The notes beneath the pieces were generated by a model that did not search any database, was not told the origin of the DNA, and saw nothing but the letters and a program-made list of their open reading frames with translations. Of a stretch of DNA of 64,000 nucleotides, positions 31,249 through 59,049 are shown piece by piece. A program made the translations under genes and the position numbers. Source of the stretch: Candidatus Omnitrophota bacterium (GTDB lineage Bacteria > Omnitrophota > Gorgyraeia > Zapsychrales > Fredricksoniimonadaceae); assembly GCA_903860135.1 (NCBI GenBank), contig CAIOPG010000007.1:2100-66099 (forward strand), given 5' to 3'. How positions within the stretch are numbered: the first letter of the stretch is position 1; every line of letters starts with the position of its first letter.

Positions 31249-31261
31249 GAAAGGAAGATAT

Positions 31262-32749: not shown

Positions 32750-32752
32750 GGT

Positions 32753-33598: not shown

Positions 33599-33600
33599 AC

Positions 33601-36023: not shown

Positions 36024-36037
36024 TGGAGGGTTACAAG

Positions 36038-37905: not shown

Positions 37906-37952
37906 GTGAGTGTAATTCAGTAAAGAATTATTGTTTCAATTAGAAGGGGATT

Positions 37953-42546: not shown

Positions 42547-43425
42547 ATGAAAGAAGCACCCGGGGTCACAATAGGTCTTCCTGTTTTTAATGAAGAAGCA
42601 CGGATCAGCAGGTGCATGGATGCTCTTTTATGCCAGACATATAAGAATTTTAGATTGATCATTTCTGATAATGGATCTACAGATACCACACGGATAGCTT
42701 GTCAGCAATATCTAGATAAGGATTCTAGGATTCAATTGATTCGTCAGGATAAGAATATGGGAGCGTTCAATAATTTTATTTATGTACTTTCTCAGGCGAA
42801 AACCCCTTATTTTATGTGGGCGGCAGCTGATGATATGTGGTCTGCGAATTTTCTTGAAGAATTAGTTGCTGATCTGGAGCGTAAGCCTGATTGTGCTGTT
42901 ACGATGCCGGCTTTTGACAGGGTTGATGAAGAAGGCCGGAGGCTTGATACGGTCAAGTTTTCGTTAAACAAGGATGCGAAGCTGTATTTTCTTGGCATGG
43001 CCTGGGGTGTAGCCGGAGCGGTCAAATATAATTGTTATATGTATGGTTTGTTCCGCACGGAAATTCTTCAAAGGGCCGCAAGGGTTTTTATGAATGTGCC
43101 GGCGGGTGACAGGATTTTCATCAGCCAGTTGGCATTGGGTGTCAAGTTTTCTTGTGTGGATAAAGTTTTGTATTTTAAGACACTCAGGAAAAGATCAGCA
43201 GCCGTCAGGTATAAGGAAGAGGATTTTAGTATCCTGGCGCAAAGAAGGTTCGCTCCTTTTTATACAGCCATGAATTTTGTCCGGACGATATTTGCTTCTG
43301 AAATAGTGCCGTATCCCCGAAAGTTCCTGGGTATTCTCGTGGCGATCTTTTCATTGGGTTTTGCGGCTTATGCGTGGGCATATCTTTTGCTTAGAAAGAT
43401 CAAGAGAGGTATATGGAAGTTTTAG
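42547..43425 (+). CDS. Glycosyltransferase family 2
   Basis: VTIGLPVFNEEARISRCMDALLCQTY...ISDNGSTD...AADD motifs. Confidence 0.8.
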   Translation: MKEAPGVTIGLPVFNEEARISRCMDALLCQTYKNFRLIISDNGSTDTTRIACQQYLDKDSRIQLIRQDKNMGAFNNFIYVLSQAKTPYFMWAAADDMWSANFLEELVADLERKPDCAVTMPAFDRVDEEGRRLDTVKFSLNKDAKLYFLGMAWGVAGAVKYNCYMYGLFRTEILQRAARVFMNVPAGDRIFISQLALGVKFSCVDKVLYFKTLRKRSAAVRYKEEDFSILAQRRFAPFYTAMNFVRTIFASEIVPYPRKFLGILVAIFSLGFAAYAWAYLLLRKIKRGIWKF

Positions 43426-44111
43426 CCTTGATACCGGCGCGTGGCGGATCGCTGCGGGTGCCGAATAAGAATATTTTGCCTTTGAATGGCAAGCCATTGA
43501 TCACTTATACGATCAGTGCGGCCAGGGCAGCGCATCAGGTGACACGGACGCTTGTATCGACAGATTCAAAGGAGATCGCTGCTGTGGCCCGTTCAGCTGG
43601 CGCACAGGTTCCTTTTTTGAGGCCGTCAGGTATTGCTCAATCAGCGTCGACGGAGATGGAGTTTCTGATCCACGCGCTGGACTGGCTGAAAACACAGGAA
43701 GGGTATGTGCCGGATCTTCTGGTGATCCTTTATCCGACGTCTCCTTTTCGTACGGCGGCGTCGATTGATGCGGCGGTTGACAGAATGAAAGCTTCACCGG
43801 AAGCAGATTCCCTGCGGAGTGTCAGGCTATGTTCGGAACATCCGTACAAGATGTGGGTCATGCAGGAGGGCTTGTTGAAGCCGTTGATGGGGCATGCTGA
43901 CAGGAATGCGCACACATGGTCGTATCAATGTTTGCCGCAAGTTTATATCCAGAATGCGAGTATTTATATCACACGTCCGAGGACAATTCTGGAGAAGGGG
44001 AATCCTGTCGGGGATATTATTCTTCCTTTTGTCATGAGTGAAGAAGAATCGCTGGATGTGAATACGGCCCTGGATTTTGAAACGGCTGTCTTCTTGATGG
44101 GGAAACGATGA
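43413..44111 (+). CDS. CMP-nonulosonic/ulosonic acid synthetase (acylneuraminate cytidylyltransferase family, NeuA/KdsB-like)
   Basis: LALIPARGGSLRVPNKNILPLNGKPLITYTI N-terminal CTP-binding motif; 232 aa. Confidence 0.8.
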   Translation: MEVLALIPARGGSLRVPNKNILPLNGKPLITYTISAARAAHQVTRTLVSTDSKEIAAVARSAGAQVPFLRPSGIAQSASTEMEFLIHALDWLKTQEGYVPDLLVILYPTSPFRTAASIDAAVDRMKASPEADSLRSVRLCSEHPYKMWVMQEGLLKPLMGHADRNAHTWSYQCLPQVYIQNASIYITRPRTILEKGNPVGDIILPFVMSEEESLDVNTALDFETAVFLMGKR

Positions 44112-45442
44112 AGAAACTGATTTGTATATCTTCAGATATATTTATCCGCAATTATATGCTCAGCGGGGCGTTTAATGTACTGGAAGATGATGATACATTT
44201 TTTATTGTCAGCAACAGGGTCAAGAATCGGCATTGTTTTGAATCAAAAAAGAATTTTATGGGATATGTGGAAGAATTATCCTGGCGGGAACGTGCTTTTG
44301 AATGGCTGATCAATATTCAAATGATCCGTCATTTTGATCGTTCAAGAACGTTTCGTTTTCGTTTTAATCGGTATCCTTGGTCGCAGCGTCTGAAATATAT
44401 GTTCGCCGCGCTGCCAGGGTTGTCCTCTTTGGTTATGATGCTCTTGCGGCGTCATATCGGCGAGAATCAGAGTTTGCGTCGGTATTTAAAGGATGTTAGG
44501 CCGGAGGTAATGATCCTCCCGAGTGCGGCGGTTGGGCTTTTGGATTATGATGTGGCGCGTGAGTCAAAGGACCTGAAGATCAGGACATTATTTCTTGTGG
44601 ATGGATGGGATAACCTTTCCAGCAAGACTGTTTTTCTGGTCAAACCGGATTTTCTCGGCGTATGGGGGCCTCAAAGCCAGGCACATGCGCGCGTGATCCA
44701 TGATATGCCGCAAAGCCGTGTCTTTAACATAGGGACGCCGCGCTTTGATCATTATTTCCGAATTGCTGCGCCGGCGAGATTGAAGGCATATCCATTCCCG
44801 TATGTGCTTTTTGCCGGGAATGCGATTCCTTTTGATGAATTGTCAGCACTCCAAGCGCTCGATGCGGCCCTTGCTGGCAGCGGTATACCGGATGTCAGGA
44901 TCATTTATCGGCCTCATCCCTGGCGGCAGCAGCGTTGTTGTCCCGATTTGTTTCAGGAAGAGGATTTTAAGCGGATTGTGATAGATAAGACGGTGCGTGA
45001 GGCTTATTATATGGCGGCCAACGGCCAGCGGCGTGAGGCGTTCGCTGTCCTGCCGCCGCTGGATGAATATCCTTCATTGTTAGCTAACGCCCTTTGTGTC
45101 GTGTCACCATTGTCGACGATGATGATCGAAGCGGCTATTTTCAATACGCCGGTCCTTGCTTTGGCTTATGATGATGGGATCCATTATACAAGCCCGCACA
45201 ATGCGCTCAGGGAGTATGTTCATTTTGAAGGTGTTGAAAATTTGCCTGGATTTGTTTTGTGTCATAAGAAGCCGTGCCTTGAGCGTACTTTTCTTGAGGT
45301 CCTGGATGCTTGCCTGAAAAAGGGCAAGCCTGAAGGTATGCGGGAAAGCCTGCGGCAATATCTTTTTTTTGAAGAGCGGGTATACGCGCAGAGGCTGGCG
45401 GATGCCGTGCATGTTGTGGGGAGTGGGGCCGTTGCTATTTGA
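44108..45442 (+). CDS. Hypothetical GT-B-like protein with an HP motif; candidate CMP-sugar-dependent (sialyl/Kdo-type) glycosyltransferase
   Basis: IIYRPHPW motif resembles the CMP-binding HP motif of GT-B sialyltransferases and KpsC/KpsS-type transferases; immediately downstream of a CMP-sugar synthetase; otherwise no recognizable signature. Confidence 0.35.
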   Translation: MKKLICISSDIFIRNYMLSGAFNVLEDDDTFFIVSNRVKNRHCFESKKNFMGYVEELSWRERAFEWLINIQMIRHFDRSRTFRFRFNRYPWSQRLKYMFAALPGLSSLVMMLLRRHIGENQSLRRYLKDVRPEVMILPSAAVGLLDYDVARESKDLKIRTLFLVDGWDNLSSKTVFLVKPDFLGVWGPQSQAHARVIHDMPQSRVFNIGTPRFDHYFRIAAPARLKAYPFPYVLFAGNAIPFDELSALQALDAALAGSGIPDVRIIYRPHPWRQQRCCPDLFQEEDFKRIVIDKTVREAYYMAANGQRREAFAVLPPLDEYPSLLANALCVVSPLSTMMIEAAIFNTPVLALAYDDGIHYTSPHNALREYVHFEGVENLPGFVLCHKKPCLERTFLEVLDACLKKGKPEGMRESLRQYLFFEERVYAQRLADAVHVVGSGAVAI

Positions 45443-45510: not shown

Positions 45511-46509
45511 ATGCTTAATGGTAAGTCAATTCTGGTCACAGGTGGCACCGGATCGTTCGGGCATAAGTTTACAGAGACGGTGTTGAAGAAATATAAACCG
45601 GCAAAGCTTATTATCTTTAGCCGCGATGAGTATAAACAATACGAGATGGCTAAACTTTTTCCTGAGCAGAAGTATGCGGCGATCCGTTATTTTATCGGTG
45701 ATGTCAGGGACAAGAGCCGGCTGCATCGCGCGTTCCAAGGGGTCGATTATGTGGTGCACGCCGCGGCATTGAAGCAGGTCCCGGCGCTGGAGTACAATCC
45801 GACCGAAGCTGTCCGCACGAATGTTGACGGGGCTAATAATATCGTGGATGCGGCTATTGATGCCGGGGTCAAGAAAGTGATCGCTTTGTCCACGGATAAA
45901 GCGGTTGGGCCTGCCAATCTCTATGGGGCGACGAAGCTTGTGGCGGAGAAGCTCTTTATCGCGGCTAATTCCTACAGCGGCGGATCGGTCAAGTTCTCGG
46001 CGGTGCGTTACGGCAATGTGGTCGGGTCGCGCGGCAGTGTGATCCCGTTTTTTATGGACCTTAAGGCGCAGGGCGTGAAAGAGTATCCGATTACAGATGA
46101 GCGGATGACGCGTTTTTGGATCACCTTGGATCAGGGGGTTGAACTGGTCCTTAAGGCGTTGACGGAATCCGTTGGCGGCGAGATCTTTATTCCCAAGATA
46201 CCATCGATGCGTGTGGTTGATCTGGCCAAGGCCTTGGAGCCTGGCTGTGTGCTCAAGGATATCGGTATCCGCCCGGGAGAGAAGATCCATGAGTCGCTTA
46301 TTTCCGAGGATGAGGCCAGGAAGGCCTTGGAATTTGATAATCATTTCATTGTGTTGCCGCAGTTCATGAAGACCGAGGAGATCGTCGCGAAATTCAAGGG
46401 CGGCAAGGCATTGCCTGACGGATTTATTTATCGCAGTGACTTGAACAAGGATTGGCTGAATATCGATCAACTCAAGATGATGGTGCGTAACTGGAAAATG
46501 GATATTTAG
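45511..46509 (+). CDS. UDP-GlcNAc 4,6-dehydratase of the PseB/LegB (FlaA1/CapD) family
   Basis: MLNGKSILVTGGTGSFG...IIFSRDEYKQ...(Y)AATK pattern typical of PseB; start at second ATG 45511 after GGAGG. Confidence 0.85.
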   Translation: MLNGKSILVTGGTGSFGHKFTETVLKKYKPAKLIIFSRDEYKQYEMAKLFPEQKYAAIRYFIGDVRDKSRLHRAFQGVDYVVHAAALKQVPALEYNPTEAVRTNVDGANNIVDAAIDAGVKKVIALSTDKAVGPANLYGATKLVAEKLFIAANSYSGGSVKFSAVRYGNVVGSRGSVIPFFMDLKAQGVKEYPITDERMTRFWITLDQGVELVLKALTESVGGEIFIPKIPSMRVVDLAKALEPGCVLKDIGIRPGEKIHESLISEDEARKALEFDNHFIVLPQFMKTEEIVAKFKGGKALPDGFIYRSDLNKDWLNIDQLKMMVRNWKMDI

Positions 46510-46510
46510 T

Positions 46511-47677
46511 ATGCCCAAGACTTCTTCTGTATTGGCGTATGGTCGGCAGTCGATTGATGGAAAGGATATCGCGGCTGTTACGCGTGTCCTTAAGAGCCCT
46601 TTTCTCACCCAAGGCCCTGCGGTTGAGGCCTTCGAGCGTGACCTGTGCGCTTATACCGGGGCAACGTTTTGTGTTGTTGTGGCCAACGGGACAGCGGCAC
46701 TCCATTTGGCCGTGGCGGCGCTTGGTTTGAAGCCAGGGGTTTCAGGTGTGACGTCGCCGGTGACTTTCCTGGCGTCGGCCAATGCCCTGGTTTATAACGG
46801 GGTTTATCCGGTATTTGCGGATGTTGACCCGCAAACGGCTAATATATCTGTTGAGGCACTTGAGAGCAGCCTGCGCCGGGATACTAAGGTCATTATTCCG
46901 GTTCATTTTGCCGGACGCCCGGCGCCGATGAAGGAAATAGCTGCACTGGCCCGGAGGAAAAAGTGCCATGTGATCGAGGATGCGGCCCATGCCATTGGCA
47001 GTCGTTACGCTGACGGCGGGCGTGTGGGCAATGGCGCGTTTTCCGACATGACGATCTTTTCCTTTCATCCGGTCAAAACGATCACGACGGGTGAAGGCGG
47101 TGCGATCATGACCAATGATAAAATGCTCTACGAGCGTTTACGCCGGCTTCGTGCGCATGGCATGACGCGCGATCCTGCCTTGATCAAAAAGAGCCCGGGG
47201 CCATGGTATTACGAGATGCAGGAATTGGGATTTAATTATCGCCTGACAGATATCCAGGCCGCGCTGGGGTCTTCCCAGCTCAAGAAGATCGGTCATTTTA
47301 TCGCCCGGCGGACGCAGATCGTGGCTGCCTACAACAAAGCATTCGCTCATTTATCCTGCCTGCGAACTGTTGCAACAGATGACACGTTATCTGCCTTTCA
47401 TCTTTATGTGGTGCGCCTTGATTTTGCCAGGATCGGCCTGACACGCCGGGAATTTATGGAGAAATTGTCTGCCCTGGGTGTGGGCACGCAAGTGCATTAT
47501 ATCCCGGTCTATCGGCATCCGTATTATCAGAAGAATTTCAAAGTTGCGTTCTCCGGTTTTCCTGAGGCAGAGAGATATTATGAAGAATGTTTATCCTTGC
47601 CTCTTTTCCCGGCCATGACGGACAGGGATGTCAGGAAAGTTGTTATGTCAGTCGGTTCTTTGTTGCCCAAAAGTTAA
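46511..47677 (+). CDS. DegT/DnrJ/EryC1-family pyridoxal-phosphate aminotransferase (PseC/LegC-like UDP-4-keto-sugar aminotransferase)
   Basis: N-terminal LAYGRQSIDGKDIAAV...FLTQGPAVEAFE and the conserved SFHPVK pyridoxal-Lys region. Confidence 0.85.
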   Translation: MPKTSSVLAYGRQSIDGKDIAAVTRVLKSPFLTQGPAVEAFERDLCAYTGATFCVVVANGTAALHLAVAALGLKPGVSGVTSPVTFLASANALVYNGVYPVFADVDPQTANISVEALESSLRRDTKVIIPVHFAGRPAPMKEIAALARRKKCHVIEDAAHAIGSRYADGGRVGNGAFSDMTIFSFHPVKTITTGEGGAIMTNDKMLYERLRRLRAHGMTRDPALIKKSPGPWYYEMQELGFNYRLTDIQAALGSSQLKKIGHFIARRTQIVAAYNKAFAHLSCLRTVATDDTLSAFHLYVVRLDFARIGLTRREFMEKLSALGVGTQVHYIPVYRHPYYQKNFKVAFSGFPEAERYYEECLSLPLFPAMTDRDVRKVVMSVGSLLPKS

Positions 47678-47689
47678 TCAGGAAATTTT

Positions 47690-49006
47690 ATGAAGAATAT
47701 TAATTCTCAGGCTTTGCAGAAGAAGGCTAAACAATATATCCCCGGAATGTCTCAATTGTTATCCAAGCGTCCGGATATGTTTTCACTGGGGGTCTGGCCG
47801 GCGTATTACAGCCGGGCCGAAGGTGCCAAGGTCTGGGATGTCGATGGGAATGAATATATTGATATGAGTATCGGCGGTATTGGCGCCAATGTTCTGGGGT
47901 ATGCCGATCCGGATGTCAATGCCGCTGTGATTGAGGCTGTCAGGAATGGGTCAAGTTCTTCCCTGAACTGTCCGGAAGAAGTGGCGCTCGCTGAAGCGTT
48001 GTGCGCGTTGCACCCCTGGGCAGAGATGGCGCGTTTTGCGCGCAGTGGCGGAGAGGCCATGGCGGTTGCGGTGCGGATCGCCCGGGCGCATACCCAGAGG
48101 GATATTGTTGTTATTTGCGGTTATCATGGGTGGCATGATTGGTATCTGGCCGCCAATGTCGGCACCGAGAACGCTTTGGGCGAACATCTTATCCCTGGCC
48201 TTAGCCCGGCGGGAGTACCCCGTGCGCTCAAAGGGACAACGCTGGTTTTTCGTTATAATGACCTCTCCAGCCTGGAGAAAGTTGTCGCAGGGAACAAACA
48301 CAAGATCGCGGCCATTGTCATGGAACCGGTGCGAAGCGTACAGCCGATGCCGGGCTTCCTTGAGGGTGTCAGGCGGTTGGCGGATGAGGAAGGCGCGGTT
48401 TTTATTGTCGACGAGATATCATCGGGCTTTCGCATGAACTGCGGCGGTGCGCATCTGGTTTACGGGATCAAGCCGGATATTGCTGTGTTTTCAAAAGCAT
48501 TGGGCAATGGTTATCCGGTAGCCGCGGTCATCGGGTGTGCGGCGGTGATGGCGTCGGCGCAAAAAAGTTTTATCAGCAGCACGATGTGGACGGAGCGTAT
48601 CGGTCCGGTGGCGGCCCTGGCGACGATCAAGAAATTCAGGGCTCTTGGAGCGCATGAACATCTCATGGCGATGGGGCGTTTGGTCCAGGAAGGCTGGTCA
48701 GCGGCTGGTCAGCGGCAGGGCTTGGCTGTCAAGCCGTCGGGGATATACCCGCTCAGTCATTTTGTTTTTGAAGATGAGGACCATTTGGTCATGAAAGCAT
48801 TTTTTATTCAGGAAATGCTGGCGCAAGGCTTCCTGGCGTCGAACCTTTTTTATTCCATGCTGGCGCACACACGCGAGCATGTTGTTGCCTATCTTGCATC
48901 TGTGGAAGATGTATTTGGCCGCATCAAACAGTTAAAAGATAAGGGCGGGTTGCGTGCTGCGCTCAAAGGGGAACCATCAGCGTCGGGATTCAAACGGATC
49001 ACATGA
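47690..49006 (+). CDS. Class III pyridoxal-phosphate aminotransferase (glutamate-1-semialdehyde aminomutase-like)
   Basis: GYHGWHDW and DEISSGFR...FSKALGNG (PLP-binding Lys) motifs. Confidence 0.8.
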   Translation: MKNINSQALQKKAKQYIPGMSQLLSKRPDMFSLGVWPAYYSRAEGAKVWDVDGNEYIDMSIGGIGANVLGYADPDVNAAVIEAVRNGSSSSLNCPEEVALAEALCALHPWAEMARFARSGGEAMAVAVRIARAHTQRDIVVICGYHGWHDWYLAANVGTENALGEHLIPGLSPAGVPRALKGTTLVFRYNDLSSLEKVVAGNKHKIAAIVMEPVRSVQPMPGFLEGVRRLADEEGAVFIVDEISSGFRMNCGGAHLVYGIKPDIAVFSKALGNGYPVAAVIGCAAVMASAQKSFISSTMWTERIGPVAALATIKKFRALGAHEHLMAMGRLVQEGWSAAGQRQGLAVKPSGIYPLSHFVFEDEDHLVMKAFFIQEMLAQGFLASNLFYSMLAHTREHVVAYLASVEDVFGRIKQLKDKGGLRAALKGEPSASGFKRIT

Positions 49007-49890
49007 ACCACCACCGGCTTGTCCTGGGGACTGTCCAGCTGGGCATGCCCTACGGCATTAACAATATGTCAGGGAAGCCTGATTTTGACAGCGCGGTGAA
49101 TATCGTGAGGGCGGCTTTCGATCGTGGCATCGCGCGTTTTGATACGGCGCAGGCGTATGGAGACAGTGAAGAGGTTTTAGGGCGTATTTTTGACAAACTG
49201 GGCATCGGGGCGCAGGTCAAAGTTTACAGCAAGTTGCACCCGGGGCTTGACGGGTGCGATGAAGAGGCGGTATTAAGGTCGGTCGATGCTTCTTTGAAAA
49301 GGCTTAAGGTGGACTGCCTTGAGGGGTTGTTGTTGCATCATGAAGATATGGTGCAGGCCTGGGATAAGGGGTTGAAGCGTGCATTTAGGGCTTTGGTCAT
49401 TCAAGGTAAGGTGAAGGCGGCAGGGGCTTCTTTTTATACGCCAGGGAAGTGTTTTGAGGCCATGGATATGGAGGGGCTAGACCTCTTCCAGGTTCCGTCA
49501 AATATTTTTGATCACAGGTTTGAGGGGGCGGGTCTGTTTGAGAAAGCGCGGGAACGTGGTAAAGCTGTTTTTGTGCGGAGCGTCTTTCTTCAAGGCCTTT
49601 TGTTGATGCCGCTGGATCGTGTGCCGTCGTCGTTGCAACATGCTTTGCCTTATCTCAAGCGATTGGAACAGGCGGCGCTGGATATGCGGTTGAGCCGTCA
49701 GGCCTTGTCATTGCGATATGCGGCACAACGATGGCCGTCTGCGTATGTTTTATTCGGCGCGGAGAGCCCGGCTCAGGTGATCGCCAATGCCGAGGCCTTT
49801 TCCGTGAAGGCAGGGTTGAGGATGGATGAGGGCTTATTTAAGGATGTGCCGGAGAATATTTTAAACCCGGTGCTTTGGTCAAAAACATGA
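49003..49890 (+). CDS. Aldo/keto reductase
   Basis: LGTVQLG...FDTAQAYGDSEEVLG AKR N-terminal signature. Confidence 0.85.
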   Translation: MNHHRLVLGTVQLGMPYGINNMSGKPDFDSAVNIVRAAFDRGIARFDTAQAYGDSEEVLGRIFDKLGIGAQVKVYSKLHPGLDGCDEEAVLRSVDASLKRLKVDCLEGLLLHHEDMVQAWDKGLKRAFRALVIQGKVKAAGASFYTPGKCFEAMDMEGLDLFQVPSNIFDHRFEGAGLFEKARERGKAVFVRSVFLQGLLLMPLDRVPSSLQHALPYLKRLEQAALDMRLSRQALSLRYAAQRWPSAYVLFGAESPAQVIANAEAFSVKAGLRMDEGLFKDVPENILNPVLWSKT

Positions 49891-50651
49891 AGAAAGCTTC
49901 TGTGATCATCCAGGCGCGCATGGGGTCATCGCGCCTCCCGAATAAAGTGCTTATGCCGTTGGCCGGCAAGCCCGTGCTTGAGCATGTGATACGCCGTTGT
50001 CAGCAAGCCAGGCTGGTGGGCCGGGTCATTGTCGCGACGACCGTTGAAGCCAAGGATTTGCCTGTTGTTAATTTTGTGAGCGGTTTGGGCGTTAGTGTTT
50101 TTTGCGGCGCGGTTAATGATGTTCTCGACCGTTATTATCAGGCGGCAAGGCTTTTTGATTTGCAGCACATTGTCCGTATTACGGCGGATTGCCCCATGCT
50201 TGATCCAGAAGTGATCGACCGGGTGATCGTGGCATATTTTCAGGAGAAGGCCGACTACACCAGCAATACACTTGAGCCAGCCACGTATCCGGATGGTGAA
50301 GATGTTGAAGTTTTTTCTTTTGAGGCCCTGTCCCGCGCCTGGACAGAGGCTGTTCTTTTATCCGAGCGAGAGCATGTTACACCGTATATTAGAAAAAATG
50401 ATTCTTTCAGCAAGACCCGCGTGTTTCATGAAAAAGATATCAGTCATTTGCGTTGGACGCTCGATGAGACCCGGGATTATGAGAAACTGTCGGCTATCTT
50501 TGATGGGTTATACGTTGAGGATAATTTCTTTCACATGAAAGACGCGTTGAGGTTTCTGGCTGCTCATGCTGATATCGACGCGGTTAACGCTGCTATCGGG
50601 CGCAATGAGGGGTATCAGAAATCTTTGGCGAATGACGGGAAGGCTGTTTGA
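49887..50651 (+). CDS. SpsF/FlmC-type cytidylyltransferase (CMP-nonulosonic acid synthetase-like, CTP_transf_3)
   Basis: KASVIIQARMGSSRLPNKVLMPLAGKPVLEHVIRR is the hallmark SpsF N-terminus; ATGA overlap with the AKR gene. Confidence 0.75.
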   Translation: MKKASVIIQARMGSSRLPNKVLMPLAGKPVLEHVIRRCQQARLVGRVIVATTVEAKDLPVVNFVSGLGVSVFCGAVNDVLDRYYQAARLFDLQHIVRITADCPMLDPEVIDRVIVAYFQEKADYTSNTLEPATYPDGEDVEVFSFEALSRAWTEAVLLSEREHVTPYIRKNDSFSKTRVFHEKDISHLRWTLDETRDYEKLSAIFDGLYVEDNFFHMKDALRFLAAHADIDAVNAAIGRNEGYQKSLANDGKAV

Positions 50652-50652
50652 T

Positions 50653-51423
50653 ATGCCCAGGATCGGGCTTAAGTTATGGTCGACAAATTTAAACTATATT
50701 CCGCCTGCTCAAATTCTTTTTGCCAGGGAAGTTTTCGATTATATTGAACTTTTTGTGGTGCCCGGTTCTCTGGGAACCCTGACTCGCTGGCAGGCGCTGG
50801 ATATCCCGTACGTATTGCATGCTCCCCACAGTACGGCGGGGCTGAATCCGGCAGATTCCTCGCGACGGCAAGAACATATTGGGCTGGTAGGTGAGGTTAA
50901 TGCGTATGCCCTGAGCTTATCGCCGGAAAAGATTATTTTCCATCCGGGTATCAATGGCGACTGGCAGGAATCAATTTCTCAATTTAAGGTGTGGCGCAAG
51001 GAGTTTCCCTGTATGTTTGATGCTGTTGTGATCGAGAATAAACCAAGGATCGGACTGAAGGGTGAGCACTGCCTCGGGGCTTCGGTGACAGAGATGAGCG
51101 AGATCCTTAAGGCGGCAGGTTGCGGGTTTTGCCTGGACTTCGGGCATGCGATCTGTACGGCTGTGGCTGACGGCCTTGATTGGAAAGCAGTGGTGCGGGA
51201 TTTCATGACCTTAAAGCCGGTCATGTATCATTTGTGTGACGGGCCATTGTCAAGTAAGGATGCGCATGAGCATTTTGGCCGCGGCGCTTTCGATCTTGAT
51301 TTCCTTGTTAGCTGCATCGAGCCAGGACGGATGGTGACACTCGAAACAAAGAAAGATTTTGATGTTTCACTGGATGATTTTGCCGAGGATGTGGAGGCCT
51401 TCAAGCGTTATGCCAGTCATTAA
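50653..51423 (+). CDS. Xylose-isomerase-like TIM-barrel protein (sugar phosphate isomerase/epimerase family)
   Basis: Alternating beta/alpha pattern with conserved E/H/D metal-site positions (HAPH...E...DFGH...H); weak. Confidence 0.4.
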   Translation: MPRIGLKLWSTNLNYIPPAQILFAREVFDYIELFVVPGSLGTLTRWQALDIPYVLHAPHSTAGLNPADSSRRQEHIGLVGEVNAYALSLSPEKIIFHPGINGDWQESISQFKVWRKEFPCMFDAVVIENKPRIGLKGEHCLGASVTEMSEILKAAGCGFCLDFGHAICTAVADGLDWKAVVRDFMTLKPVMYHLCDGPLSSKDAHEHFGRGAFDLDFLVSCIEPGRMVTLETKKDFDVSLDDFAEDVEAFKRYASH

Positions 51424-52951
51424 TATTGCCGGACGCCTTATCGGCGAAGGGCAGCCATGTTATATCATCGCAGAAATGTCGGCCAATCACGGCGGAAGCT
51501 TGGATAAGGCGATGCAAATCGTGCGGGCGGCCAAAGCGGCGGGGGCCGATGCGATCAAGCTGCAGACATATACACCTGATACCATGACGTTGAATTGCGA
51601 CAGTGATTGTTTTCGTATTCACGAAGGCTCTCTTTGGGAAGGAAAAACACTTTATCAGCTTTATGCCGAGGCCATGACGCCATGGGAATGGCACAGGCCG
51701 TTAAAAGAAGAGGCAGAAAAGATCGGGCTGCATTTCTTTTCCACACCCTTTGATGAAACGTCTGTCAATTTTCTTGAAGAGCTCGGAGTACCTGCCTATA
51801 AAATTGCGTCTTTTGAGTTGACCGACGACCTTTTGTTGCGCAGGGTGGCAAGGACGGGGAAGCCTGTTATTATGTCAACGGGCATGTCGACCATGGAAGA
51901 GATCGCCAGGGCTTTGAGCGTTCTCAGGTCATCGGGAGCGCGTGAGATCGCTCTTTTAAAATGTGTCAGTGCTTATCCGGCCCCTTTGCATGAAATGAAT
52001 TTATCGGCGATCACGAGATTGCGGGAGAGTTTCGGCGTTGTTGTCGGGCTTTCAGACCACACGCTGGGAGATGTTTCTTCCCTTGTTTCTGTTGGCCTCG
52101 GAGCTGCTGTCTTCGAGAAACACTTGCGGCTAGATGACGGTGAGAGTACGCCTGACGCTGTCTTTTCAATGACCCCTTTGCAGCTGGAGCAGCTGGTGGT
52201 TAAGATGCGGGACGCTGAGGCGGCCATGGGCGTAGGTTTTATTGGCAGGACCGATAATGAAAGAGCTAATCTGCGGTTCCGTCGCTCGATCTTTGTGAGT
52301 TGTAACATCAAGCAGGGGGCTGTCTTCTCCAGGGAGAACATTCAGCTTGTTCGTCCCGGCTTTGGGCTTCCTTCGTATTGTTGGGATAAAATAATAGGAC
52401 AAAAAGCCGCGCATGATCTCTCTCAGGGACAGCCATTAGGCCGGCAGGATGTGGTATTCCCATCGGAGACAGTGCGACCTGAATTCCAGGTCCGTATGGT
52501 TCGGCCGGAGGATGCGCGCGTGCTTTGGGAGTGGAGGAATTTGCGTGATGTGCGGGAAGTCTCTATCGGCCAGGAGGAGATTTCCTGGGAGCAGCATGTG
52601 CATTGGTTGGATGAAAAGCTTAAAGACCCGCAAACTATCTTTTATATGATCGAGGTCGCAGGACAAGTGGCGGGACAGGTTCGTTTTGCGATTAAAGATT
52701 TTACGGCACAGGTCAGTATTGTATTGGCGCCATCATATCGCGCTTGCGGGCTTGGCAGTGCGGCATTGCAACAGCTGTCGCAAGCGTTGTTTTTGAATAA
52801 GTGGGCGGATGTTGTTGAGGCCCTGATCCGGCAGGAGAATACGGCTTCTTTATCTGCTTTTGTAAAAGCGGGGTTTATTTTTGAAACAGCAATAACGGTA
52901 TCAGGTGTGGATTGTTTTTTGTATAAAATGAAGAAAACAAGTTCTTCATGA
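51410..52951 (+). CDS. Fusion protein: PseI/NeuB-family nonulosonic acid synthase (N-terminal about 350 aa, with SAF domain) fused to a C-terminal GNAT N-acetyltransferase (PseH-like)
   Basis: CYIIAEMSANHGGSLDKAMQIVRAAKAAGADAIKLQTYTPDT (PseI-type QTY); C-terminal about 150 aa with GNAT motif A region QVAGQVRF...RACGLGSAAL; overlaps the upstream gene end. Confidence 0.8.
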   Translation: MPVINIAGRLIGEGQPCYIIAEMSANHGGSLDKAMQIVRAAKAAGADAIKLQTYTPDTMTLNCDSDCFRIHEGSLWEGKTLYQLYAEAMTPWEWHRPLKEEAEKIGLHFFSTPFDETSVNFLEELGVPAYKIASFELTDDLLLRRVARTGKPVIMSTGMSTMEEIARALSVLRSSGAREIALLKCVSAYPAPLHEMNLSAITRLRESFGVVVGLSDHTLGDVSSLVSVGLGAAVFEKHLRLDDGESTPDAVFSMTPLQLEQLVVKMRDAEAAMGVGFIGRTDNERANLRFRRSIFVSCNIKQGAVFSRENIQLVRPGFGLPSYCWDKIIGQKAAHDLSQGQPLGRQDVVFPSETVRPEFQVRMVRPEDARVLWEWRNLRDVREVSIGQEEISWEQHVHWLDEKLKDPQTIFYMIEVAGQVAGQVRFAIKDFTAQVSIVLAPSYRACGLGSAALQQLSQALFLNKWADVVEALIRQENTASLSAFVKAGFIFETAITVSGVDCFLYKMKKTSSS

Positions 52952-54780
52952 AGCATAAAACTATTCTTGTCCCAGAAATTCATCTCTTTAACTGGATCAT
53001 CTTTTATTGTTTATCCCATGCGATGCGTGTGGTGACTTGCCGTGTTTCTCCGGTGTTGAAACCGTTGCCTTTGGGGCGGATTGAGTTTGTAGACTGGGAA
53101 AAGTATGTGGGGTGGGAAGAAAAAAATATTCTCTTTGATCGTGCCGTTGATCTGCTGGCACAGCTGGGGCTTTACGAGGAAAAACCGGATAGCGCGATGA
53201 TCCTTGGGCGAAAGGTTGATTTGAAGGCGATGCTGCTGCAGCGCCGGAGCCAGGCTTTGACTGTGATCGTTTTTGGTGATGCGGGCCGCTCTGCGGGCTT
53301 GGTATTTATTGATGATGCCTTGACAGCGATGATCCGGCGTCAGTTGTACGGGTGCTGTCGGGTTGGGTTTTGGGCAACATTGAACATTGCACTTCAGTAT
53401 ATTAATTTCTTGGTTGAGAATATTTTGTTTTTTGGCAGAGGGGCAATCTGTTTATGGCGTGGTGTGATGTGTCTGGATCGGCGCTCTTTGAAGGTTGCAT
53501 ATGTTTATGATGGCGTTTCTCCACGGGAGCTTTCTGCGGATTCGAAAGATATAAGTTTTTCCTGGATTATTGATGGCGAGAAGATCAGGCGTGAGGATGT
53601 CTTTTTTATTTTACCTCGACCGGATTTTCAGATGCGTGGTCAGGCGTATGTTCCGTGTTCAGAAGATGGGTTTCGGGCGGCGTATCATGCCGAGACTTTT
53701 CATTATTTTTCAACCGAGGCTTTGTGGGCGGGTTTTCAGATGTTGGGGGGTGTCTTCCTGCGTGCCTGCTTTTCCTTGCGTCTCATGGATATTATCAGAG
53801 TTCGCGTCATGTTGGAGATGGTGCCGGGTATTGTCCTTTGCCGTTCCTTGCGGCCCAAAGTGTATATCATGACGTCGAGTGTCTGCGGGGGGGAGCCGGC
53901 GCACATCCCTTACTTGAATGCCGAGGGTGTCAGGACCGTCATATGGTCTTATGGGACGAATAGTTATTTGTTTCAGAAGAACGGGGGGGAAGAATGCCGT
54001 TTCCGTTTGACTGTCTTTGCGTATATTGCCTCTAATTTCTTTATTGTATGGAATGAGCATTATGCGCAATATGTGCGTGAGCATCCGCAGTTGTCGGTTG
54101 ATATTCGTGTTATCGGGCCATTAATGAGTGGCGATGAGTCGATTGTTCAGATGGGGCGGGAAGCGGTGTTTACGTCTGCTGGGATTTCTTATGATCCGCG
54201 GAAGAAATATATCGGGGTGTTTGATTGTCCGTTGCCTGTGGCACAATTTCGACGCCGGGGATCATGGTTTCCTGAAGCGGTGGATGATGAGTATAATCAT
54301 GCCTTGCTTGCTGATGTGTATAAGATCGTTAAAGATTCTGAAAATCTGGTGCTTGTCTATAAGCCCAAGCGCAGTTTGGCCAGCGGCAAGTTCTCGTATG
54401 CAAAAGAGATGCTTGAGATATTCGAGCAAATGAGGAATGATCCGAGTGTGATCATGCTGGATTATAATATCAACCCCTGGGTGCCGGTGGCCTTGGTTGA
54501 TGTGGCGATCAGCGCCCCGTTTGAGTCGCCGAATATCGCCGTTATGCATTATGGCAAGGAAAGTTTTTTTTATGATCCTTTTGGCATCGTCAACATTCAC
54601 AGGTATAATGATTCTTTAACGCTTATTTTAAAGGGTCGTAATGAGTTAAGAGAACGGATTCAAGCGTTGTTTGCTGATCAGGGCAAACAGGATATGCATC
54701 CAGCGTATGCATTACTGCAAGGGAGAAATCCGTGCTTGAATTCTTCAGGGATCTTCAGAGAATTCCTGCAGTCGTTATAA
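52948..54780 (+). CDS. Large hypothetical protein (610 aa), candidate glycosyltransferase of unknown family
   Basis: No recognizable motifs beyond a REHPQ segment; N-terminal hydrophobic segment; position between nonulosonic-acid genes. Confidence 0.3.
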   Translation: MKHKTILVPEIHLFNWIIFYCLSHAMRVVTCRVSPVLKPLPLGRIEFVDWEKYVGWEEKNILFDRAVDLLAQLGLYEEKPDSAMILGRKVDLKAMLLQRRSQALTVIVFGDAGRSAGLVFIDDALTAMIRRQLYGCCRVGFWATLNIALQYINFLVENILFFGRGAICLWRGVMCLDRRSLKVAYVYDGVSPRELSADSKDISFSWIIDGEKIRREDVFFILPRPDFQMRGQAYVPCSEDGFRAAYHAETFHYFSTEALWAGFQMLGGVFLRACFSLRLMDIIRVRVMLEMVPGIVLCRSLRPKVYIMTSSVCGGEPAHIPYLNAEGVRTVIWSYGTNSYLFQKNGGEECRFRLTVFAYIASNFFIVWNEHYAQYVREHPQLSVDIRVIGPLMSGDESIVQMGREAVFTSAGISYDPRKKYIGVFDCPLPVAQFRRRGSWFPEAVDDEYNHALLADVYKIVKDSENLVLVYKPKRSLASGKFSYAKEMLEIFEQMRNDPSVIMLDYNINPWVPVALVDVAISAPFESPNIAVMHYGKESFFYDPFGIVNIHRYNDSLTLILKGRNELRERIQALFADQGKQDMHPAYALLQGRNPCLNSSGIFREFLQSL

Positions 54781-54796: not shown

Positions 54797-55507
54797 ATGC
54801 ATGTTGGTGACGGAATTAATAAAGGACGTGCTAATTGGGACTTTGGCGGAGATGTCGCGGATAATTTTGTGCCGCATGTGCGCAAGTCAGTGCCTTTATA
54901 TGATGAAGGGCATGAGCTTATTTGTCAGTTGAGTGATTTCTTCTGTCAAAAGGACAGTGTGTGTTATGAACTCGGTGCGTCCACCGGGCAGTTGATCGGA
55001 AAACTGGCACAGCATAACGCCCAAAAGCCGCAGATCCGCTGGATAGGTCTTGATCTTGAGGCCAATATGATCGATAAGGCCAGAGTCTACTGCAAGGATA
55101 TCCCGAATGTCGAGTTTATGGTGGATGATATTCTTACCTGTGACATGGAGAAGGCTGATTTTATTGTGGCGTATTATTGCGTGCAGTTTATTTCTGAACG
55201 GCACCGTCAGGAGCTTTTTAACAAGATATATGAACGTCTTAATTGGGGGGGGGCTTTTGTGTTATTCGAGAAGGTGAGGGCTCCGGACGCGCGGTTTCAG
55301 GATATGATGACAGGGCTTTACACCGATTTCAAAATACGCAATGGCTTTTCGCCCGAAGAGATTCTCGGGAAGGCGCAAAGTTTAAAAGGTGTTCTCGATC
55401 CGTTTTCAACAGACGGGAATCTGGGGCTTCTAAAGCGTGCGGGCTTTGTGGATGTGATGACGGTGATGAAGTATGTATGCTTTGAAGGTTTCTTGGCTAT
55501 AAAATAA
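54797..55507 (+). CDS. CmoA-family protein (carboxy-S-adenosyl-L-methionine synthase-like class I SAM enzyme)
   Basis: End-to-end collinear similarity to E. coli CmoA recalled from memory: W.F...VA..F.....KSVP.Y, YELGASTGQ, NKIYERLNWGGAFVLFEK, C-terminal KYVCFEGFLAIK vs FQCFNFGSLVALK. Confidence 0.8.
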   Translation: MHVGDGINKGRANWDFGGDVADNFVPHVRKSVPLYDEGHELICQLSDFFCQKDSVCYELGASTGQLIGKLAQHNAQKPQIRWIGLDLEANMIDKARVYCKDIPNVEFMVDDILTCDMEKADFIVAYYCVQFISERHRQELFNKIYERLNWGGAFVLFEKVRAPDARFQDMMTGLYTDFKIRNGFSPEEILGKAQSLKGVLDPFSTDGNLGLLKRAGFVDVMTVMKYVCFEGFLAIK

Positions 55508-55520
55508 CAAAGGGCTGGGC

Positions 55521-56579
55521 ATGCAAGAAAAAAATCTTATTAGCAGGATCGAGCAGGATCTCGCGGCATTAAAGATGGGCGTCAAGGATACTCCCGGCCG
55601 GTTGGATTCGAAGTGGGATTCTCTTTTATCGACAGAACCCAGGAAGTTCATTAATGAAGATTTGACGATCAATTTGGAAGGACTACGCAATTTTCGTCGT
55701 GATATTGTTTTTATTTCTGATACGCCTGTTCATGTCAAGCCGGGGTTGGGAACGATCAAGGCGCTCCTGAGCGGGGGGCATCGGGGGGAGCGCCGGTTGT
55801 TGAAGGATGCTTTTGCAGGGATTGATAAAGAAGGTCTTTTACCATTATTAAAGAAGTTCCCTTGTAATGGCGTTGGGAATCCTAATATTTGTCGGCACAA
55901 GGGGTATCAGTTTACTTTACGATGGCTGCGGCACATTTATTTAACAGGGACATTGGGGCGTCATACAGGCGATCGCTTGAATGCCGAGTTTTTTCATCTG
56001 GATGTTGGATCAAGTTATGGGCTTTTTGAGCATCTTTTGAAAATGCAATATTCCGGCGGGCATTCTATCCTTGTCGATTTTCCAGAGCAGCTGGTACTGG
56101 CGCATTATTATTTGGGAATGTCGTTCCCGGAGGCGAAGATCGCAGGGTTTCAGGAGGTTCTTAAGGCACAGGCTTTAGGGCGTGATTTCTTGAGAAAGTA
56201 TGATTTTATTTTGGTGCCCTGGTTTATGTATGAAAAGATTAGCCCTCAAACGATCGATCTTTTTACGAATTTTGCATCTTTTGGAGAAATGAAGAGAGAA
56301 TGGTTTGATTATTATTTAAAGAAAGAGCCGTTCTTAAGTGCCAGGATTTTTTATTGTGTTAACCGGTTTCAATCGGCGCCAACCTATGACACTGACTTGA
56401 CGATCCTTGATTATCCTTTGGCTCAATTTGAAAAGAAGCAATTTAGAATATCCCCTTTCTTTAGTCATACGTATCAGCGCAAGGCGGTCTTTTTTTGTGC
56501 AAAGGTTCCATTTTCATCGCAATATTTTGAGTTCGTCGGTGTTCAAAATAGTGGCGCAACAAATATGAGGAATAGATGA
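55521..56579 (+). CDS. Methyltransferase-like protein, paralog B (glycine motif partly degenerate: HLDVGSSYG)
   Basis: Shares the collinear motifs ILVDFPEQL...YYLGMSFPEAKI...FASFGEM...CVNR with ORFs 40673 and 56576. Confidence 0.45.
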   Translation: MQEKNLISRIEQDLAALKMGVKDTPGRLDSKWDSLLSTEPRKFINEDLTINLEGLRNFRRDIVFISDTPVHVKPGLGTIKALLSGGHRGERRLLKDAFAGIDKEGLLPLLKKFPCNGVGNPNICRHKGYQFTLRWLRHIYLTGTLGRHTGDRLNAEFFHLDVGSSYGLFEHLLKMQYSGGHSILVDFPEQLVLAHYYLGMSFPEAKIAGFQEVLKAQALGRDFLRKYDFILVPWFMYEKISPQTIDLFTNFASFGEMKREWFDYYLKKEPFLSARIFYCVNRFQSAPTYDTDLTILDYPLAQFEKKQFRISPFFSHTYQRKAVFFCAKVPFSSQYFEFVGVQNSGATNMRNR

Positions 56580-57496
56580 CTCATAAAGAAATCTTGAATA
56601 AGTTATATTCTGATTATTATGGGACTGCTGGGGAGTCTATTAAGGGGGGTGTTATAAGCAGTCATTGGGAAAAGTATGCAACACTCACAAATGTGTTTAT
56701 AAACAAAGGGATTTATAGCCTTTCTGGTGTTGGTTTTGGAAATTTTGTGTCGAGCAATTCGTTAAGGGCACTAAAACATTTTTTGCCTAACCGCCGTGCA
56801 CAGTCGTTACTTAATAAATTCCATGTGGACGGTAAAATACAATCGGCGGGGTTTAATGTTGCGAAAAAATCCAAAAGAGAAGTGGATTTTGATTGTGTGA
56901 AGCAAATGTTAAGCGTTGATTTGATGAATAAGCATGAAGTTCTTAATAAAGCTAAGACAATTGTTGTTATCGGAGATGGTTACGGGTATATGACGGCATT
57001 ATTAAGAACAATAGTGCCAGAGGCTAAGATTATTTGTATTAATTTAGGGCGGGTTTTGTTTTTTGATGTTTATTATGTTGGAAAAAATTTTCCGAATGAA
57101 AAGTATGCTTTAAATTCAATCGGGCATAAGGATCAGCGATTAGTTTTTTGGGAAGCTGAGAATTATCAATCATTGGGCGCTCTGCCGATAGATCTATTTA
57201 TCAATATTGCGTCTATGCAAGAAATGAATATGGATGTCATTCGCAACTATTTTAAGATCATGCGGGCCAGTGCGGGAGATGGATATTTCTATTGTTGTAA
57301 TCGTGTCGAAAAGGCATTGCCCGATGGCGCGATTATTCGATTTGATGCATATCCATGGGAAAAGAAGGACAAGGTTATGCTAGATGAATTGTGTCCATGG
57401 TATCAAAAGTTCCCCATACTGTATCCGCCATTCTGGAAAAACTTTGATGGACCATTACAGCATAGGTTGGTGAAATTGTTGCGACATTTTGGGTAA
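56576..57496 (+). CDS. Methyltransferase-like protein, paralog C
   Basis: VVIGDGYGYMTALL motif I; CINLGRVL...YYVGKNFPNEK...IASMQEM...CCNR collinear with paralogs A and B; ATGA overlap with paralog B. Confidence 0.45.
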   Translation: MTHKEILNKLYSDYYGTAGESIKGGVISSHWEKYATLTNVFINKGIYSLSGVGFGNFVSSNSLRALKHFLPNRRAQSLLNKFHVDGKIQSAGFNVAKKSKREVDFDCVKQMLSVDLMNKHEVLNKAKTIVVIGDGYGYMTALLRTIVPEAKIICINLGRVLFFDVYYVGKNFPNEKYALNSIGHKDQRLVFWEAENYQSLGALPIDLFINIASMQEMNMDVIRNYFKIMRASAGDGYFYCCNRVEKALPDGAIIRFDAYPWEKKDKVMLDELCPWYQKFPILYPPFWKNFDGPLQHRLVKLLRHFG

Positions 57497-58468: not shown

Positions 58469-59049
58469 CAGCGCATGTGTTGAAACATTGGTTCTTCTGG
58501 CAGGCGGGCCGTATTTATTGCCGATGGCGCGGGGTTTGTTTTGGGAAAGGCCTGCGGGTATATGGATTGCCGATCCTTTCTTGTCATGATGAGGCAAGGA
58601 TCATGCTGGGGGATGATGTTGTTTTGACAAGTGATCCGCGGATGAACATGGCGGGCATGTCGCGCCGGGTGACATTGGCCGCGCCGTTTGCGGGCGGCGA
58701 GATTGTCGTCGGCGATCATACAGGCTTGTCCGGGGTTGTTGTTTTTGCTGTCAGGTCGGTACGCATTGGCCGTCATGTGAATGTGGGTGTTAATGTATCC
58801 ATTTATGACAACGATTTTCATGCTTTAGATTGGAAAGCCAGGCGGGCCAATGATCTTTCACAGGTGGCGGTTGCGCCGGTGGTGATTGAGGATGATGCCT
58901 GGATCGGGGGCAATGCCATGATCTTAAAAGGTGTCCATATCGGACGAGGGGCTGTGGTTGGAGCCGGCAGTGTTGTAACGTCGGATATCCCTGCCGGTAC
59001 GGTGTGGGCGGGCAATCCGGCCAAGTTCATCAAAAAACTGCCAGCATAA
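58465..59049 (+). CDS. Hexapeptide-repeat (LbH) sugar O-acetyltransferase (maltose/galactoside acetyltransferase-like)
   Basis: Multiple hexapeptide turns VGDHTGLSGVVVFA...IGRHVNVGVNVSI...IGGNAMILKGVHIGRGAVVGAGSVV and C-terminal GNPAK. Confidence 0.8.
   Translation: MTAHVLKHWFFWQAGRIYCRWRGVCFGKGLRVYGLPILSCHDEARIMLGDDVVLTSDPRMNMAGMSRRVTLAAPFAGGEIVVGDHTGLSGVVVFAVRSVRIGRHVNVGVNVSIYDNDFHALDWKARRANDLSQVAVAPVVIEDDAWIGGNAMILKGVHIGRGAVVGAGSVVTSDIPAGTVWAGNPAKFIKKLPA

Follow-up and report, generated by a model that had tools for sequence, protein, structure and literature searches.

Which enzyme releases the sugar from uridine diphosphate (UDP) in a pseudaminic acid operon that lacks PseG? The question is raised by seven genes at positions 45511 to 52951 of a 64,000-nucleotide stretch of DNA from a Candidatus Omnitrophota bacterium (hereafter the window, meaning this whole stretch). 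Pseudaminic acid (Pse) decorates flagella, capsules and O-antigens, and its six-enzyme pathway is both a drug target and a tool for chemoenzymatic synthesis. We propose with moderate confidence that the operon is co-translated and would convert UDP-N-acetylglucosamine (UDP-GlcNAc) to a pseudaminic-type nonulosonic acid activated with cytidine monophosphate (CMP), with a TIM-barrel protein replacing PseG and two further enzymes tailoring the sugar. The account as a whole is a prediction from comparative genomics and structure prediction.

All seven genes lie on the + strand with tight overlaps, in the order pseB, pseC, a class III aminotransferase (AT3), an aldo/keto reductase (AKR), a cytidylyltransferase (CT), the TIM-barrel protein (TIM) and a fusion of PseI to a GNAT acetyltransferase (PseI-GNAT). 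Neighbouring start and stop codons overlap or lie at most 13 nt apart, which suggests translational coupling. The same gene starts appear in the independent ENA annotation of a 202-kb contig with identical genes, and the nearest relatives of AT3, TIM and the PseI-GNAT fusion come from metagenome-assembled genomes of Omnitrophota. A first-pass annotation of the window had listed a dehydratase, an aminotransferase, a cytidylyltransferase, a synthase and three further enzymes here, and all seven genes are present. Promoter and terminator scans from 42 to 56 kb gave counts near those of shuffled sequence and are uninformative.

That annotation described the pathway as pseudaminic or legionaminic in type. 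We scored the gene products with the curated equivalog models of NCBIfam 20.0 and compared each score with the cut-off of its model. The first product (45511..46509, + strand; 332 aa in the ENA call, with an alternative in-frame ATG at 45499) reaches 506.4 bits with the PseB model TIGR03589 (cut-off 407.75) and 69.3 bits with the LegB model (cut-off 475), and matches PF02719 at E 5e-100; the dehydratase is thus assigned as a UDP-GlcNAc 4,6-dehydratase/5-epimerase of the inverting PseB type and not a retaining enzyme. The DegT-type UDP-4-keto-sugar C4 aminotransferase PseC (46511..47677, + strand; PF01041, E 7.5e-115) reaches 496.6 bits with TIGR03588 (cut-off 423.5) and 235.2 with the LegC model (cut-off 420). 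The PseI part of the fusion (51410..52444, + strand), which consists of a NeuB-type TIM barrel (PF03102, E 1.5e-84) and a SAF domain (PF08666), reaches 441.5 bits with TIGR03586 (cut-off 340.25) and 297.8 with the NeuB model (cut-off 399.65). Because PseB, PseC and PseI exceed the Pse cut-offs, with the LegB, LegC and NeuB/LegI equivalog models all under theirs, the operon is on these scores a pseudaminic and not a legionaminic pathway. The nonulosonic acid pathway and its pseudaminic label therefore stand, and the legionaminic label falls away.

No PseG or LegG had been recognized in the window by eye, and three kinds of scan bear this out for the 64 kb. A tblastn search with three PseG-like proteins gave a best E value of 0.34, a hidden Markov model (HMM) of 49 PseG sequences run with --max against every open reading frame (ORF) of the window gave 0.27, and a Pfam scan of about 60 window ORFs found no Epimerase_2 (NeuC/LegG) domain. 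The ORFs starting at 44108, 52948 and 59050 had been suggested as places where PseG might be hidden. Their hhalign probabilities are 15 %, 0.1 % and 30 %, and none is PseG; the likeness is confined to the C-terminal Rossmann half, and we read it as at most a faint, generic resemblance to glycosyltransferases of the GT-B fold, which has two Rossmann-like domains.

Related loci were collected with AT3 as the handle, one genome per GTDB species, yielding 267 relatives and 80 loci kept. They come from Omnitrophota, Desulfobacterota, Planctomycetota, Chloroflexota, Nitrospirota, the Candidate Phyla Radiation (CPR), Elusimicrobiota, Bacteroidota, Zixibacteria and Proteobacteria. Their ORFs were tabulated with phmmer and an iterated PseG HMM within 10 kb on either side. 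Among 83 AT3 loci, TIM occurs alone in 16 and PseG alone in 42, no locus has both, and 25 have neither, the last being mostly incomplete contigs or clusters with a non-Pse synthase. When only loci with a PseI-type synthase are counted, 14 have TIM only, 29 PseG only, none both and two neither (Fisher p = 7e-10, a value that is inflated and overstates independence because the loci are related). Three further TIM loci found via TIM homologs (L087, L088 and L089) likewise lack PseG, giving in total 86 related loci of which 19 carry TIM, 42 carry PseG and none carries both (61 informative loci).

The exclusion does not follow a single lineage, since the AT3 tree requires at least five switches between TIM and PseG and both states are found within Omnitrophota and within Syntrophales. 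TIM directly follows CT in all cases and usually directly precedes PseI, occupying the slot CT-X-PseI. PseG usually follows CT as well, at a more variable distance from PseI. Two of the TIM loci (L087 and L089) carry neither AT3 nor AKR; TIM therefore goes with PseI, not with the AT3 module.

TIM (50653..51423, + strand) is a member of PF01261 (34.9 bits, cut-off 31.1), and its AlphaFold2 model is a TIM barrel with a predicted local distance difference test score (pLDDT) of 97.4. The top solved neighbours found with Foldseek are MJ1311, endonuclease IV from M. tuberculosis and other sources, and MbnB; the endonuclease IV structures match at E 1e-9 to 1e-13 with 15-21 % identity (21 % for M. 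tuberculosis). Nine residues are invariant in the TIM family (H56, H97, E128, D162, H165, H193, D203, H205 and E231), and they align with the endonuclease IV motifs HAPY, (F/V)H(P/G)G, xEN, CxDTCH, xHxND, DRHxxxG and xxET. They fall on what we take to be the E. coli Nfo ligands H109, E145, D179, H182, H216, D229 and H231. Judged by this alignment, TIM retains all nine ligands of the trinuclear metal site of endonuclease IV.

Its score with the deoxyribonuclease IV model NF002198 is 23.5 bits, far under the cut-off of 244, and with the CbiR model NF041277 it is 31.6 bits, under the cut-off of 105. The genomic context of TIM is nonulosonate biosynthesis only. NCBIfam 20.0 contains no model for the family, which comprises at least 344 cluster representatives (clustering at 50 % identity; E <= 1e-30) and carries the labels 'deoxyribonuclease IV', 'TIM barrel protein' and 'sugar phosphate isomerase' in source databases.

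About one third of the 150 best TIM-family representatives are about 400 aa long. Ten such members were tested, and six have a GNAT domain on either side of the barrel, one a formyltransferase, one a methyltransferase and two an inserted DUF559. In L088 a TIM-GNAT fusion lies directly upstream of PseI. PseG-GNAT fusions are found in L050, L065, L066, L077, L079 and L085, and the TIM-GNAT fusions mirror them: TIM shares the fusion partner of PseG, the N-acyltransferase of the preceding step. As for the other fusions, P0437 joins TIM to a formyltransferase and P0445 to a methyltransferase, while P0385 and P0419 have a DUF559/REase-like domain within or ahead of the barrel. The TIM-type Pse clusters L087 and L089 have formyltransferase, PIG-L deacetylase or HisH/HisF-type amidotransferase genes in place of AT3 and AKR, and these gene sets fit N-formyl or acetamidino sugar variants.

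The nine metal ligands, the exclusion with PseG, the shared slot and the shared fusion partner suggest that TIM is probably a functional replacement of PseG, that is, a non-orthologous displacement by a metal-dependent phosphoesterase. The first-pass annotation had counted it as an additional, xylose-isomerase-like enzyme, and a PseG replacement is now its most likely role. A literature search for a PseG substitute found no paper describing TIM in this role. Two points weigh against the assignment. The substrate of endonuclease IV is DNA and not a nucleotide sugar. MbnB-type multinuclear iron oxidases and MJ1311 share the fold and the ligands and are equally good matches, so hydrolysis is not the sole chemistry that the site would allow.

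It is conceivable, and to our mind unlikely but worth keeping in view, that TIM is instead a tailoring isomerase, epimerase or oxidase, or an MbnB-like multinuclear-iron oxidase, with a canonical PseG gene in another part of the genome. TIM belongs to PF01261, the xylose-isomerase-like superfamily, the best Foldseek match, MJ1311, is described as 'D-tagatose 3-epimerase-like', MbnB oxidases are among the top matches, and one TIM-family member has a weak MbnB_TglH_ChrH match. A pseG gene may also lie beyond the DNA searched, which amounts to 64 kb here, on a contig at least 200 kb long, and to 10 kb on either side in the relatives. Yet a tailoring enzyme should co-occur freely with PseG, as AT3 and AKR do, and the complete exclusion across the informative loci despite the repeated switches counts against such a role. 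So does the finding of TIM in the position of PseG with the fusion partner of PseG. The ligand set is the full trinuclear one of endonuclease IV, whereas ketose isomerases and epimerases typically have a smaller one- or two-metal site. A function of TIM as ketone supplier for AT3 was also considered and is ruled out, as each occurs without the other.

The acetyltransferase of the preceding step would be the C-terminal part of the synthase. The last gene of the operon (51410..52951, + strand) encodes 513 aa in one uninterrupted frame, in which a Pfam scan places NeuB at about residues 37-275, SAF at about 292-348 and GNAT at about 361-489; the GNAT part corresponds to 52487..52951 (+ strand; PF13302, E 1.5e-11; PF00583, E 6.3e-9). 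The AlphaFold2 model, based on 33 sequences of the same architecture (pLDDT 93.7), folds residues 360-508 as a canonical GNAT alpha/beta domain, joined to the NeuB barrel and SAF domain by a short linker at about 350-359 (pLDDT 67). Both the joining of synthase and GNAT in one reading frame and the GNAT fold of the C-terminus, as proposed earlier, are thus upheld. The same architecture is found in 32 other proteins of 494-519 aa with 41-58 % identity, several from Omnitrophota; the fused share of PseI homologs (33/120) is not a frequency, as the query itself carried the GNAT domain.

An assembly or frameshift artefact joining two adjacent genes might produce such an ORF, and in the closest relatives (the sister Omnitrophota loci L009, L011, L012 and L018) pseI and the GNAT gene are indeed adjacent but separate, as overlapping ORFs in different frames. 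We consider this explanation extremely improbable for the window. The frame is continuous, the same 513-aa gene is called on the independent 202-kb ENA contig, a partial copy on another contig is 100 % identical, the 32 other proteins include some with 53-58 % identity over 98-99 % of the length, and the AlphaFold2 model is confident for both domains with a defined linker between them.

Only the window and L019 carry the PseI-GNAT fusion among AT3-bearing loci. In L019 PseI is fused to another GNAT lineage than in the window, and L001/L003 and L002 involve yet other lineages. Since different GNAT lineages have been joined to PseI, the fusion is recurrent, with at least four independent origins. 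It is genuine, a minority state, and mechanistically unremarkable, being a merger of neighbouring genes of the same pathway. PseH and PseI are separate in Campylobacter and Helicobacter, and the fusion, first described as unusual, is so only relative to these organisms; it recurs in metagenomes.

When GNAT sequences are clustered, the domain of the window groups with those fused to PseG or adjoining PseI. Among solved structures it is best matched by C. jejuni PseH (4xpk) at E 0.013, and its translation carries the motif R-A-C-G-L-G, which fits what we presume to be the acetyl-CoA loop pattern Q/RxxGxG/A. The domain is a probable PseH-type N-acetyltransferase for the C4 amine. Weighing against this, its score with the curated PseH model TIGR03585 is 39.1 bits, under the cut-off of 93.1, and for this reason the PseH role is one that we infer.

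The activation step raises a similar question of assignment. CT (49887..50651, + strand) is a KdsB/NeuA-superfamily cytidylyltransferase (PF02348, E 2e-34) and not a PseF equivalog, scoring 26.6 bits with TIGR03584 (cut-off 205.7). Its closest solved relative is 6oew, 'cytidylyltransferase' (E 3.4e-36), and the label 'SpsF-type' rests on PF02348 membership and the likeness to 6oew. Because most related cassettes have no other detected cytidylyltransferase (e.g. L005 and L006), CT is probably the CMP-Pse synthetase and not an extra. B. subtilis spsF mutants make and accumulate legionaminic acid (Leg) and cannot transfer it, which fits a CMP-activation step (PMC7439481), and the Moritella study assumes CMP activation for its cytidylyltransferase too (PMC7371886).

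A point against CT is a second member of PF02348 upstream, a PseF-like cytidylyltransferase at 43413..44111 (+ strand), which reaches 140.1 bits with TIGR03584, also under the cut-off; either of the two might activate Pse. The upstream enzyme may serve a second synthase at 28871, or Pse itself. Its gene overlaps the start of a 444-aa ORF (44108..45442, + strand) with no Pfam match, a faint BFO_1060 glycosyltransferase match (E 0.0027) and the above-mentioned 15 % hhalign probability against PseG, within its C-terminal half; the ORF is possibly a CMP-ulosonate transferase. On the other side of the operon, the gene for a PFTS-motif polysaccharide biosynthesis protein (52948..54780, + strand; TIGR04417, 139.9 bits, cut-off 100) starts within the end of pseI-GNAT and is translationally coupled to it; its product is an inferred candidate nonulosonate transferase. 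In L089 and L005, too, PseI is followed by genes of the PFTS or LIC12162 family.

AT3 and AKR were first noted as extras that hint at a derivatised sugar, and they are indeed a conserved module apart from the core pathway. AT3 (47690..49006, + strand) is a class III enzyme dependent on pyridoxal phosphate (PLP) and resembles glutamate-1-semialdehyde (GSA) aminomutase (PF00202, E 2.3e-44; 152 bits, cut-off 30.5). It has more than 8000 homologs, of which the top 120 are 63-100 % identical, and misses all NCBIfam cut-offs. It is not recognized as HemL (TIGR00713, 219.7 bits, cut-off 527.3; PRK06209, 259.8 bits, cut-off 486), and its context is not tetrapyrrole synthesis. D241 and K269 are invariant in 83 orthologs, and from the motif we read K269 as the PLP-binding lysine and D241 as the aspartate that binds the pyridine nitrogen. 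AKR (49003..49890, + strand; PF00248, E 4.8e-31; 108 bits, cut-off 24), the partner of AT3, keeps the tetrad D47/Y52/K77/H112 in 51-52 of 52 orthologs. By these residues both enzymes look catalytically competent. The nearest solved structures of AT3 are GSA aminomutase and then FumI (aminopentol) and GenB C-6' aminoglycoside aminotransferases; the substrates of FumI and GenB are methyl ketones or aldehydes.

AKR co-occurs with AT3 in most loci, and both are among the most conserved genes of these clusters, with 60-84 % identity across phyla. They accompany either hydrolase type, TIM or PseG, and each hydrolase type is also found without them; they therefore form an independent, optional module. 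A distinct acetyltransferase family, 'GNAT-A' (36 members), adjoins AT3, AKR or CT (L022 9361-9921, L027 9341-9904, L079 9415-9999 and others) and in L002 (20391-21533) is fused as GNAT-CT-AT3; it is absent from the window. Further fusions are CT-AT3 and, in L072, AKR-PseC. Single-linkage clustering of neighbouring ORFs gave no further universally conserved partner, the families being collapsed by gene fusions. On this distribution, AT3, AKR and GNAT-A are an optional, widely transferred, phylum-spanning module with a putative tailoring function. The logic of an aminotransferase followed by an acetyltransferase suggests that the module would install a further acetamido group.

Where that group might be placed is a more tentative matter. 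By analogy with related aminotransferases, AKR could oxidise the exocyclic C8 alcohol to a methyl ketone that AT3 would then transaminate, a scheme that we regard as possible rather than probable. Flexibacter maritimus has an 8-amino nonulosonic acid of manno configuration (PMC3210612). Two observations are difficult to reconcile with the scheme. AKRs usually reduce and do not oxidise, which makes the C8 oxidation awkward. A third cassette type (L007 766-10248 and L038 2639-14934) has AT3, AKR and CT and lacks PseC, PseG and TIM; beside two GNATs and a methyltransferase it has a dehydratase resembling PseB, a reductase resembling RmlD and a NeuB-like synthase that matches the window PseI at about 170 bits, so that simple amine counting does not fit. 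Replacement of PseC by AT3 is ruled out for the window, where both are present, and is possible for the PseC-less loci L007, L024 and L038.

The chief alternative to C8 amination is that AT3 and AKR make an N-acyl side chain, for instance 4-hydroxybutyrate from gamma-aminobutyrate (GABA); in a broader version, AT3, AKR, CT and TIM form a separate pathway to a CMP- or CDP-activated amino-alditol or amino-acid-derived substituent (cf. the CDP-ribitol synthase TarI/TarJ). A class III aminotransferase with an AKR matches the route from GABA via succinic semialdehyde to 4-hydroxybutyrate, 4-hydroxybutyryl-substituted nonulosonic acids have been reported in O-antigens, the four genes are contiguous, and CT-AT3, GNAT-CT-AT3 and (in Moritella) CT-AKR fusions exist. 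The four genes are not one unit, however, since TIM occurs without AT3 and AKR in L087 and L089 and AT3 and AKR occur without TIM in the 42 PseG-type loci. CT is in the KdsB/NeuA family (PF02348), which is known to activate ulosonic acids and not phosphorylated alditols, and is the sole activating enzyme detected in most cassettes. Neither a CoA ligase nor an ATP-grasp enzyme accompanies the AT3-AKR module as a conserved neighbour. Taken together, we consider these alternatives improbable, and optional tailoring of the nonulosonic acid itself is the reading that we retain.

In the pathway that we propose, PseB would convert UDP-GlcNAc to a UDP-4-keto-6-deoxy sugar and PseC would aminate it at C4, both steps being assigned from curated models. 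The fused GNAT would N-acetylate the C4 amine in the manner of PseH. TIM would then free the 2,4-diacetamido-2,4,6-trideoxy-hexose from UDP, normally the step of PseG. PseG cleaves the C1-O bond without a metal; TIM, as a multinuclear-metal phosphoesterase, would attack the sugar-1-phosphate ester and cleave P-O. PseI, again by its curated model, would condense the freed hexose with phosphoenolpyruvate, and the KdsB/NeuA-type CT would act as CMP-Pse synthetase. AT3 and AKR may provide optional tailoring, in which the exocyclic -CH(OH)-CH3 tail (C8) would become a methyl ketone and then an 8-amino sugar.

The operon lies in a single-strand, mosaic glycan-biosynthesis island, in which the genes discussed are all on the + strand and the GC skew is positive throughout the window. 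The 5' part encodes Wza/Wzc/Wzy-type export and polymerisation proteins, a flippase, glycosyltransferases and a priming transferase, and an AbiEii toxin gene lies at 25-978. GC content falls from about 0.48-0.52 in the flanking parts to about 0.40-0.43 at 12-24 kb. Two glycan sub-clusters are separated by the genes of a DUF4143 ATPase (26765-27919) and a papain-like protease (27822-28763). The second NeuB-family synthase scores 291 bits with the NeuB model and 236 bits with the PseI model, under the cut-off in each case. It shares the region 28871-34545 with an aldehyde dehydrogenase, a split transketolase, a KdsC/Kdn-9-P-phosphatase-like gene and a PtmA-like short-chain dehydrogenase/reductase (SDR). 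The phosphatase suggests that the substrate is a phosphorylated aldose, and the presence of a transketolase could mean that the ulosonic acid is a different one or has a longer chain.

A CDP-glucose pathway follows at 35960-40605, with glucose-1-P cytidylyltransferase and CDP-glucose 4,6-dehydratase (both over cut-offs), a 3,5-epimerase, an SDR and a C-methyltransferase, which suggests a branched or methylated dideoxyhexose. Tailoring genes at 40673-41749, 54797-57496, 57515-58468 and 60813-61961 encode three NanM-like sugar O-methyltransferases, a CmoA-like methyltransferase (139 bits, under cut-off) and two radical SAM/SPASM proteins (SAM, S-adenosylmethionine); a hexapeptide acetyltransferase (58465-59049) is also part of the set. 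This dense set suggests heavy methylation or other modification of the glycan. The PFTS-motif protein and the product of 59050-60855 (TIGR04326, LIC13510-like, under cut-off) are about 600 aa each and belong to families first defined in Leptospira surface-carbohydrate loci; both are candidate nonulosonate transferases or polymerases.

If TIM is the UDP-release enzyme, the apparent lack of pseG in many environmental Pse clusters would be explained, the automatic 'deoxyribonuclease IV / sugar isomerase' labels would be corrected on hundreds of genes, and a new catalyst, unrelated to PseG and with a different mechanism, would be added to the pathway. In its furthest form our hypothesis is that the TIM family is an unrecognised class of nucleotide-sugar hydrolases that has repeatedly displaced PseG by metal-dependent P-O cleavage, and that AT3-AKR(-GNAT-A) makes 8-amino (triamino) nonulosonic acids. 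We are doubtful that both parts hold together; if they did, such triamino sugars would be widespread in Omnitrophota, Desulfobacterota, Planctomycetota, CPR and other groups. Solving the chemistry of AT3 and AKR would probably bring to light a modification of bacterial sialic-acid-like sugars that is common yet undescribed.

Compared with the canonical PseB-PseC-PseH-PseG-PseI-PseF pathway of C. jejuni and H. pylori, the operon has the PseB, PseC and PseI equivalogs, a GNAT and a cytidylyltransferase, and the same logic leading from UDP-GlcNAc through a 6-deoxy-diamino hexose to a nine-carbon acid. It differs in that the window lacks PseG, a KdsB/NeuA-type CT stands in place of a PseF equivalog, the predicted PseH is a domain of PseI, and AT3 and AKR are embedded in the operon. 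The CMP-pseudaminic pathway has been reconstituted in Tannerella forsythia (PMC5378307). With the bifunctional PseG-GNAT proteins the operon shares a GNAT of the same cluster, and TIM-GNAT fusions repeat their pairing; the window differs in joining its GNAT to the synthase, and its predicted hydrolase is a TIM barrel and not the GT-B-fold PseG.

TIM shares with endonuclease IV (Nfo/End) the barrel fold and, by alignment, the nine ligands of the trinuclear site, and its weak match to the cobamide phosphodiesterase CbiR of the AP_endonuc_2 superfamily points to the phosphodiesterase branch; unlike theirs, its predicted substrate is a UDP-sugar and not DNA or cobamide. The oxidation-transamination pairs GenQ/GenB1, acting on the -CH(OH)CH3 group at C6' of a gentamicin intermediate, and KdnB/KdnA, making 8-amino-3,8-dideoxy-manno-octulosonic acid (Kdo8N), resemble AKR and AT3 as a dehydrogenase with a PLP aminotransferase that turns a side-chain alcohol into an amine, and GenB-type enzymes are relatives of AT3. 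Here the partner is an AKR and not a flavoenzyme or iron-dependent alcohol dehydrogenase, and the substrate and position are putative. The sps Leg pathway of B. subtilis (SpsM/C/D/G/E/F; PMC7439481) likewise uses UDP-linked intermediates and places the cytidylyltransferase SpsF at the last step, whereas its product is Leg and not Pse, its hydrolase is SpsG, and AT3, AKR and TIM are lacking. The tailoring genes have parallels in two described Pse clusters. The O-antigen cluster of L. pneumophila Sg6/Sg12 has the AT3/CT/AKR set inside a Pse-type cluster with PseG retained as annotated (PMC3694923), and the Pse cluster of Moritella viscosa has a class III aminotransferase and a CT-AKR fusion (PMC7371886). 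Neither study assigns a function to the aminotransferase/AKR set, and our literature search on the set together with the cytidylyltransferase found descriptive mentions only (Legionella Sg6, Moritella) and no functional study. In both systems, as in the window, the set accompanies a Pse-type cluster.

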